This document shows positions 61,761-64,000 of a stretch of DNA of 64,000 nucleotides, one piece after another. The DNA comes from Eledone cirrhosa (taxonomy: Eukaryota). Below the pieces are notes generated by a model. It searched no databases. It saw only the letters and a program-made list of their open reading frames with translations, and had not been told where the DNA came from. The stretch covers positions 130,820,001 to 130,884,000 of the forward strand of contig OZ024740.1 in assembly GCA_964016885.1 (NCBI GenBank), written 5' to 3'. The number at the start of each line of letters is the position of its first letter. Positions within the stretch are counted from its first letter, which is position 1. Both the position numbers and the translations under genes were made by a program.

Positions 61761-62144
61761 AATATATATATATATATATATATATATATATATATATATA
61801 TATATATATATATAGAGAGAGAGAGAGAGAGAGAGAGAGAGAGAGAGAGAGAGAGAGAGAGAGAGAGAATAAGGAAAAGCGAAGTAGATTCAGATGTTCA
61901 AGTCCTTTAATAATAATGCTGGTAGAGGGAATTTCCAGGGGTAGCTCATGGTTGATTCCTCTCTTCTCCACCATATCGGTTACATCATAGAGCGCTCAAC
62001 TAATTTGAGCTAAATTATTAGTGTAAACATTGATGCAATTCAATTCAAGCACACAAATTACTTTTCCACATAGGAGTGACGGATTAAATATCGAATAAGG
62101 AAAAGCGAAGTAGTTTCAGATGTTCAAGTTCTTTAATAATAATG

Positions 62145-62216
62145 CTGTGATATATATTTCAATGACGACACTGGCCACACTGTTCTGTGTGCCAGTGTTG
62201 TGACATCATCAGACAG
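62145..62216 (-). ncRNA. Type I hammerhead ribozyme with extended stem II
   Basis: ctgt-CTGATGA-tg..acactggc..gccagtgt..ca-tt-GAAA-tatata-tc-acag; AUC triplet; palindromic stem III. Confidence 0.75.
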
Positions 62217-63466
62217 ATTGTTACATAATAAGGTTATGTTTCCGAGGCAATCCAAATTGAATCGACATGGGAACGGATGAAGTGTGTGCTTTTGGGTTCT
62301 TCATCCGTTCTCCTATGAGTATCAATTCACCCCCACTGGTCTGCGTAGGCGCATGTCCGAAGTAACTTGACCATTAGCTACCGCAGATTTCAACTAAATT
62401 GGCTTAGTCAGTTCACCCTCTCAGTCAAACAATGGCCCACCTAGGCCTGTACCATAGTTTACTGTTCCCCATCCCGACCGTGGCAGTCAGCCGAAAGCCA
62501 GAGGGGATGGGATAGTGTTAGTTTTTACAGGTCACAATACTACCTCTCACCAAGCGTGGACAAGGCGACTGACCATCAACTCATGAGAGAAAATAAACTT
62601 AATTCTAGGTATCATGGTTTTACATTGGAAGTTAAGAGTGAGAGTTGGAAATAAAAATTAAAATCCTAAATCAAATATCAGAAATTATGAATTAAACAAT
62701 TAAAAAATTAACAATTAGAAATAAAAAATTAAAAAAATTTTAGAAATAGGAAAATGTTTCAAGTGAGAATCCGGATTTAGGTGAGTAAAAAAATATAGAT
62801 TGAAGTGAGAAAATAATATGGAGAACGATGTTTAAGTAAGAAGTTTTGAGAGGGGTTCTAATGTCACAGTTACTCTATCCACATATTGAACGACGGCGCC
62901 GTACATTTGAACGGAGGTTAAACTACAGTATTCAAGGTGGTAGTCAATCTGGTACACAGTCATAATTTCCATCACATGGAACAAAACCAAATAAAAACAG
63001 ACATAAAGTACACAAAAGAAAAGAACCAATAATGAATAAATCCCAAAACACAGAGTACATATATGCAAAATGATCCTTATGTTTATCAATCTGTCAATGT
63101 ATAAATTGAATTGAGAGGGCTTCTGTTCAAATGCGATTTGGTGCAGGAAAATAGGGGTTTATCTTAGTTCTTGTTTCCGCGTATTTATCCTGCCGATTGT
63201 TACTATTATGTCTGTCCAGTGTCAGGGCTTTCTATACCCATGGTAGAGGGAATTTCCAGGGGTAGCTGATGGTTGGTTCCTCTCTTCTCCACCATATCGA
63301 TTACATCATAGAGCGCTCAACTAACTGGAGCTAAATTATTAGGGTAAATATTGATGCAATTCAATTCAAGCACTCAACGTAATTTTTCCACATAGGAGAG
63401 ACGGATTAAATATCGAATAAGGAAAAGCGAAGTAGTTTCAGATATTCAAGTTCTTTAATAATTATG

Positions 63467-63538
63467 CTGTGATATATATTTCAATGACGACACTGGCCAC
63501 ACTGTTCTGTGTGCCAGTGTTGTGACATCATCAGACAG
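63467..63538 (-). ncRNA. Second copy of the same hammerhead
   Basis: Identical to 62145-62216. Confidence 0.75.
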
Positions 63539-64000
63539 ATTGTTACATAATAAGGTTATGTTTCCGAGGCAATCCAAATTGAATCGACATGGGAACGGAT
63601 GAAGTGTGTGCTTTTGGGTTCTTCATCCGTTCTCCTATGAGTATCAATTCACCCCCACTGGTCTGCGTAGGCGCATGTCCGAAGGAAGTTGACCATTAGC
63701 TACCGCAGATTTCAACTAAATTGGCTTAGTCAGTTCACCCTCTCAGTCAAACAATGGCCCACCTAGGCCTGTACCATAGTTTACTGTTCCCTATCCCGAC
63801 TGTGGCAGTCAGCTGAAAGCCAGAGGGGATGGGATAGTGTTAGTTTTTACAGGTCACAATACTACCTCTCACCAAGCGTGGACAAGGCGACTGACCATCA
63901 ACTCATGAGAGAAAATAAACTTAATTCTAGGTATCATGGTTTTACATTGGAAGTTAAGAGTGAGAGTTGGAAATAAAAATTAAAATCCTAAATCAAATAT

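Follow-up and report, generated by a model that had tools for sequence, protein, structure and literature searches.

The closest described systems are the metazoan non-LTR retrozymes and the EN+ Penelope-like elements (PLEs). Retrozymes, as presented in the accessible text of Cervera and de la Pena 2020 (PMC7229834) and of the 2026 survey by Li, Clavereau and Pollet (bioRxiv 10.64898/2026.07.22.740005), have non-coding tandem units with one type I hammerhead each, low GC, dispersed copies and a proposed dependence on PLEs. All of this is shared by the 1.3-kb element described here. In terms of unit length, about 300 bp is typical of retrozymes, with a range of 51-972 bp in the sections seen of the 2026 survey (search period <=1000), compared with about 1.3 kb in our element. 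Retrozymes are known as linear and circular monomer RNA, whereas our element is known here from genomic copies alone. Unlike the retrozymes of these accounts, most of its copies are sub-unit head-to-head insertions with two fixed ends; the word “inverted” is absent from the main text of PMC7229834.

EN+ PLE insertions, in the portions consulted of Arkhipova 2013 (PMC3846280) and Craig 2021 (PMC8557442), show 5' truncation, partial tandems and a head-to-head inverted copy. These insertions, with inverted pLTR and “tail”, also have an extension at one end only, microsatellite targets, microhomology junctions and a hammerhead near the 3' end. The 1.3-kb element resembles them in each of these points and differs in having no ORF and a tail of about 77 nt, against 30-40 nt. 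The one-end tail is near-obligate in our element (82/83), compared with “optional” or “often” in the same texts, and its arm lengths exclude fold-back for many copies, unlike the EN+ PLE descriptions given there. The Anolis Poseidon element PAc, according to the open text of Frangieh 2024 (PMC11167929), starts RT in vitro at two internal sites, which lie downstream of the hammerhead and delimit the tail. Both target strands are extended, uncut RNA is the template, cleavage is dispensable in vitro and a dimer is predicted. Two start sites 3' of the hammerhead are thus common to PAc, in vitro, and to our element, as genomic ends. PAc is described as having no start-site difference between strands in vitro, while the pairing in our element is seen in genomic copies only, and the open text draws no connection between its start sites and the paired arms of inverted insertions. 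Inverted copies, one-end tails, microsatellite targets and two in vitro start sites are therefore known, and the 1.3-kb element is a long-unit addition to them. As far as its genomic copies go, it fits the testable features of non-LTR retrozymes and of non-autonomous PLEs.

The window is a stretch of 64,000 nucleotides of Eledone cirrhosa (assembly GCA_964016885.1, contig OZ024740.1, positions 130,820,001 to 130,884,000), and the features of the insertion inside it are collected in Table 1. Unit positions are numbered on the RNA strand, with +1 as the first base 3' of the predicted hammerhead cut (62148 and 63470).

Table 1. Features of the 1.3-kb element and its flank at the right end of the window.
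Feature	Position in window	Strand
(TA)n(GA)n microsatellite, target-side flank at the outer end of the insertion	61762..61868	
Terminal piece of 55 nt covering unit +2..+56; outward it stops at the short 3' end fixed in the family (inferred RT start +56)	61867..61921	-
Same-orientation junction from +2 to +230, CA/TG overlap	61920..61921	-
5' part of unit, +1..+230; both family end sites internal (+56 at 62093, +133 near 62017)	61920..62148	-
Type I hammerhead motif; predicted cut between 62149 and 62148; core 62212-62206 and 62160-62157	62144..62217	-
One full non-coding unit, 1322 nt	62149..63470	-
Second hammerhead motif; predicted cut between 63471 and 63470	63466..63539	-
3' part of the next unit; insertion extends past the window	63471..64000	-

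The sequence past 64000 was inspected, as the preliminary description had advised, and the element continues to G000:C1:130893895. The whole insertion is a 12-kb head-to-head structure (G000:C1:130881867-130893895). Its left arm, on the minus strand, has 55 + 229 nt, three units and 1034 nt, and inverts at about C1:130887150. The right arm, on the plus strand, has 48 nt, five units and 134 nt, with its long end (+132/134) in (TA)n. There are nine ribozyme-bearing unit joints, eight with a full core. The spacing of 1322 nt reported earlier holds in the window but not for the family, where the majority unit has 1298 nt.

The 1.3-kb element has no protein-coding capacity: the unit has no ORF above 108 aa and no Pfam match, and tblastn with ten PLE proteins of the same genome gave chance-level matches only. 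It is not an autonomous PLE, which has an ORF with RT and GIY-YIG domains.

The distinct units of the window insertion are 5-9% apart, and its age sign is about 3% divergence per unit. Window units have 2-13 non-majority alleles in common (7-13 for all full-unit pairs), against a median of 0-1 with other insertions. Common alleles despite this divergence show one origin, comparatively old. Later DNA events are visible in both arms. On the right, a 2.63-kb block occurs twice, with shared breakpoints and 2 differences in 1321 nt; on the left, three units are only 0.9-1.9% apart. The 2.63-kb period was considered as evidence of a dimer circle and rejected, because both breakpoints lie within unit 1042-1092, as in a single DNA duplication.

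The terminal junction had been read in the preliminary description as a fossil of in vivo cleavage, and the local facts behind this reading are correct. The terminal piece duplicates 62093-62147 (96%) and 63415-63469 (93%) and ends at the equivalent of 62147, that is, it covers unit +56..+2. A 2-nt TG overlap (CA on the RNA strand) at 61920-61921 links +2 to unit +230. The predicted cut lies between 62149 and 62148 on the minus strand (AUC/ACAG, with CUGAUGA at 62212-62206 and GAAA at 62160-62157). A genome-wide search found this +2/+230 junction a single time. It equals the loss of about 1,093 nt including one ribozyme, and each unit has 77 CA dinucleotides. Propagation of a shortened unit was rejected, as only one genomic copy of the junction exists.

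The terminal piece differs from the next unit at 2/55 sites. This lies within the insertion's own divergence, as would be expected, and gives no sign of a second template. Since the insertion carries later duplications, a plain 1.09-kb microhomology deletion fits as well as a template jump. That misassembly of a tandem array created the junction is, in our view, highly improbable. Its uniqueness and its place next to microsatellites, within 12 kb of tandem and inverted repeats, would agree with such an error, as would the contigs of two runs from one sample, which contain the element family although none of the pieces listed bridges the junction. Yet both pieces have their own variants relative to their neighbours, the outer end is the exact +56 end of the family and similar jumps occur in short, simple insertions.

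The hammerhead was described earlier as one intact copy per unit. This stands for the core, but the window copies have weakened helices, and an Rfam search at gathering and E-value thresholds returned no hammerhead match. In 178 copies, the core (CUGANGA, GAAA and an NUH cut site) is present with substitutions of 0-3%, except for N7 with 21%. Helix II shows double changes between subfamilies, A-U to G-C in 28 copies and C-G to G-U in 13. With only the tolerant N7 varying much, and with these double changes, the hammerhead looks constrained. On the other hand, helix I has 4 bp in the window copies (62149 and 63471) against 5 bp in the family form. The base of helix II has a U.U opposition in 172/178 copies, window copies included. 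Helix III is a 1-2-bp palindrome, and the unconstrained fold of the window ribozyme sequesters the core. A helix III that is palindromic, and cleavage that is weak and depends on dimers, have precedents in the text available of PMC4209133. The printed copies of an older subfamily have a different helix II, able to pair at its base, and the ribozyme of the young subfamily may be weakened relative to it. The monomer or circle RNA predicted in the preliminary description is a possible product of such a ribozyme.

If the window junction recorded cleavage, other copies should also end at the cut site, and the family was large enough for a count. A 22-nt anchor at unit +21..+42 has at least 1,734 exact genome matches, and most of the first 100 listed have a whole ribozyme upstream. 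All insertions behind these 100 matches form an unbiased sample of 105 arms. In this sample 94 arms reach +3 and 0 end in +3..-3, while arm ends in the other bins have 0.5-4.3 per 1000 nt. The check proposed earlier, junction positions relative to the hammerhead, thus came out against the fossil reading, which the family does not support.

A second, genome-wide list holds 83 non-standard upstream contexts, with standard and SINE-bearing contexts excluded. A script placed 58 of them, three of which were reclassified by eye, and the remaining 25 were assigned by eye to small indels, point variants or SINE insertions. Within -11..+5, a span of 16 nt, there are 30 junction ends, a small number that was counted partly by eye; +1..+3 holds 4-6 of them, against 5.6 expected if even. 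Upstream ends are found at -11 (5), -10 (1), -9 (8), -8 (2), -7 (1), -4 (2) and -3 (4), and downstream ends at +2 (3), +3 (1) and +4 (3), and outside this span 17 more lie from +6 onwards. If two -9 rows in a TA repeat are taken as +1, the total at +1..+3 becomes 6. In agreement with this, 200/355 rows tallied by eye have 8-10 ends at +1..+3, compared with about 72 at +4..+21 and about 23 at -1..-14. Jumps in the same orientation begin at +7, +12, +26, +45 and +94 as well (L045, L089, L138, L163 and L172).

The cut site is therefore no junction hotspot, although a small cut fraction in vivo is possible. Neither the family arms nor the upstream contexts give a positive sign of self-cleavage at the predicted site, and the nearness of the window junction to this site is not above chance for the family. 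A cleavage fossil would have told whether Penelope-type hammerheads cut their own RNA during transposition; the family data show that copying instead passed uninterrupted through the cut site in nearly every event.

For the window copy itself, reverse transcription from +56 on a self-cleaved RNA, with run-off at the 5' end and a jump to +230 of another template, is unlikely, and it would need only a small fraction of templates to be cut. The junction end is 1 nt from the predicted cut, a second same-orientation jump goes directly from +2 to about +280 (L297), and another locus has arms ending at +1 and +2 (L199). Run-off would also agree with the conserved ribozyme and its helix II covariation, and with the ends, which by eye are fewer just upstream than just downstream of the cut. 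However, this last difference could come either from a small cut fraction or from AT-rich microhomology at +6..+17. Positions +1..+3 are not enriched, and the 2/55 differences in the terminal piece show no second template. All three +2 ends of the genome-wide list overlap their partner by CAG, which would allow synthesis to have stopped at any position from +2 to +5.

Two other kinds of variant near the cut site were tried as signs of cleavage or template switching and rejected. Three 2-nt losses at the site (L086, L301 and L319) were read as slips of a CA dinucleotide, like the adjacent TA and ATT slips. Junctions with a SINE near +6 differ in their truncations and duplications, and this SINE also inserts at ATT-rich sites elsewhere.

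This SINE-like element has 185 nt, and we take it to be tRNA-like and to resemble octopod SINEs. It lies in the ATT repeat just 3' of the ribozyme (unit +6..+26), with many independent entries and varied truncations. It is found in roughly 8 of the first 100 anchors, with examples in L043:6110-6294, L048, L085, L117 and L175. In 301 kb of flanking DNA it has 26 matches, mostly at ATT-rich targets.

In contrast to the cut site, the outer 3' ends of the family fall at two fixed places, +56 (short) and +132/133 (long), followed by (TA)n. We analysed 155 de-duplicated loci for these ends. The complete inverted clusters, 98 in number, comprise 82 with one short and one long end, 1 long+long, 0 short+short and 15 unclassifiable. 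In the lone long+long cluster (L107), the second end is an interruption. Complete single arms (61) have the short end in 33 cases, the long end in 20 and an end elsewhere in 8. Target flanks are (TA)n or (TC)n at 81/82 short ends and (TA)n at 78/82 long ends, and the inversion joints mostly have 0-3 nt of overlap. Partial tandems together with inverted, 5'-truncated copies are a PLE-type feature that the 1.3-kb element has. A weak cluster of arm ends in a second turn, near +120..+160, was seen by eye and is biased.

The two arms vary freely in length. The short arm reaches further upstream in 35/82 pairs and the long arm in 34/82, and the two are within 20 nt in 13/82. A hand count found 23/82 pairs in which neither arm is within the other, as the short-end arm reaches further upstream but does not have +57..+132. 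Arms of one insertion carry common private variants and are a median of 2.6% apart, against 6.6% between insertions, and the value is lower in 47/49. Gene conversion between adjacent inverted repeats could also be the source of this likeness. Repeated turns inside one arm are a median of 3.0% apart, below the between-insertion value in 30/34.

Could one arm be copied from the other? Self-priming has been proposed for inverted copies, in the part of PMC3846280 available, and fold-back or self-priming would explain why the arms of an insertion are alike. In 39 unbiased pairs, 9 end within 60 nt of each other, against 4.6 expected (p = 0.02). Yet the 23/82 pairs with neither arm contained in the other contradict it. 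Together, the free arm lengths, the common variants and a short+long pairing almost without exception argue against fold-back and for paired priming at the two start sites known in vitro. We regard fold-back as very unlikely as the general route, and it could apply to a minority of near-symmetric stubs.

L1 twin priming likewise produces a head-to-head inversion with a microhomology joint from a pair of primers on the target strands, but its second site varies and its two parts have hardly any overlap. In the 1.3-kb element both sites are fixed, and the arms copy overlapping sequence. The short+long pairing is likely to arise because both DNA strands of the target site prime copying at two set points of the RNA.

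An older subfamily, about 71-89% identical, has the same two ends (L252-L281; 56 exact motif matches). A family that diverges at about -129, tried as a candidate autonomous partner, was rejected, as it is this older non-coding subfamily. Several other families in the genome, among them the RT plus GIY-YIG element at 56391-59875 of the window, also have one short and one long end, an impression gained by eye and without counts.

Taken as a whole, the window holds the outer end of a 12-kb head-to-head insertion of a non-coding hammerhead element that was probably mobilised by a PLE and inserted by two-site priming, and the terminal junction is most likely an ordinary microhomology jump or a later deletion. 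In such a scheme, the GIY-YIG nuclease of a partner would cut both strands of a (TA)n tract, and each of the two 3' ends would prime RT at its own fixed internal site of the RNA, the two sites being about 77 nt apart and probably each served by one subunit of a dimeric enzyme. Each cDNA would then extend a variable distance upstream through the ribozyme, where the template would be covalently continuous, either as an uncut tandem transcript or as a ligated circle. The two cDNA ends would be joined via 0-3 nt of microhomology. Occasional jumps in synthesis, with later DNA deletions and duplications, would leave junctions like that of the window at many positions.

The template may also be more closely specified as ribozyme-cut, ligated monomer circles, with multi-unit arms made by rolling-circle RT and read-through explained by cleavage plus ligation. 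A circle-based cycle has been proposed for retrozymes and for PLEs, in the accessible parts of PMC7229834 and PMC4209133, respectively. We hold this to be a genuine possibility, on the less probable side. In most multi-turn insertions a turn is about as close to the other turns of its arm as to the opposite arm, the distinct units of the window form a star with common alleles and the ribozyme appears constrained, all as expected from a circle. However, a uniform tandem transcript yields the same pattern, and the young subfamily has the U.U at the base of helix II. In one insertion (L170) two successive turns contain the same unit, in which a SINE junction has taken away the cut site; a cut site is thus not needed for tandem units to arise. 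Some near-identical turns are moreover later DNA duplications (L037, L047 and the right arm of the window insertion).

As for the partner in the two-site scheme, mobilisation by a Penelope-like RT is likely, and the genome is rich in GIY-YIG-bearing elements. No autonomous partner with the same ends was found in the 50 of 150 GIY-YIG loci listed, in the single-arm flanks or in 30/56 older-subfamily matches, and it is thus the structure of the copies that points to PLE mobilisation.

A stricter version of two-site priming is put forward tentatively, as rather doubtful. Here the paired priming would be obligate: a dimeric RT would use both cut strands simultaneously, each at a different one of two fixed sites on one ribozyme-made circular RNA, and each strand would be extended round the circle and across the sealed cut site up to the joining of the two cDNAs. 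A single reaction would then yield tail, head-to-head inversion and tandem repeats alike, and the copies of this family would record it. A literature search of open main texts returned no statement of obligate short+long paired priming for PLE inversions. A large protein-free family constrains the open question of how PLEs make inverted, one-tailed insertions. Its copy set is good genomic evidence on the formation of PLE inversions, and paired priming can be tested in the existing in vitro system.

Some additional observations concern the ends of the element. At 17 of about 80 readable short ends the element is followed by (TC)n (e.g. 61814-61868, L246 and L250), which is seen mainly there and not at the long end. 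Two other families whose short end finishes in TC have the same (TC)n pattern. The repeat could come from slippage at priming or from later growth of the microsatellite. The long end is preceded by CCCTAA (unit +126..+132), one complement of a telomere repeat, which may be chance.

Other hammerhead-like motifs were found in tandem or inverted repeats (L232:7510-8419; L240:2174-3506; window about 49946 and 10598-11724). Among these repeats is a 459-nt tandem unit whose helix I is common to the 1.3-kb element. Several retrozyme-like families seem to coexist in this genome.

The window also contains neighbours of the insertion. A second inverted relic is located at about 59906-61761, with arms at 59915-60033 and 61598-61716 (82%), and one of its ends matches the beginning of a region in locus L233 that holds a long GIY-YIG ORF. 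The 1.3-kb element sits in (TA)n at the end of this relic. A PLE of a different family occupies 56391-59875 on the plus strand, with RT and GIY-YIG domains split by a stop at about 57560. It has 348-nt inverted terminal arms (99%) and a tail of about 35-40 nt at its right end only, in (TA)n. Finally, minus-strand fragments at 7357-8115, 28503-29213 and 33263-33919 match RVT_1, PIF1 helicase (probably Helitron-like) and, weakly, zf-RVT.
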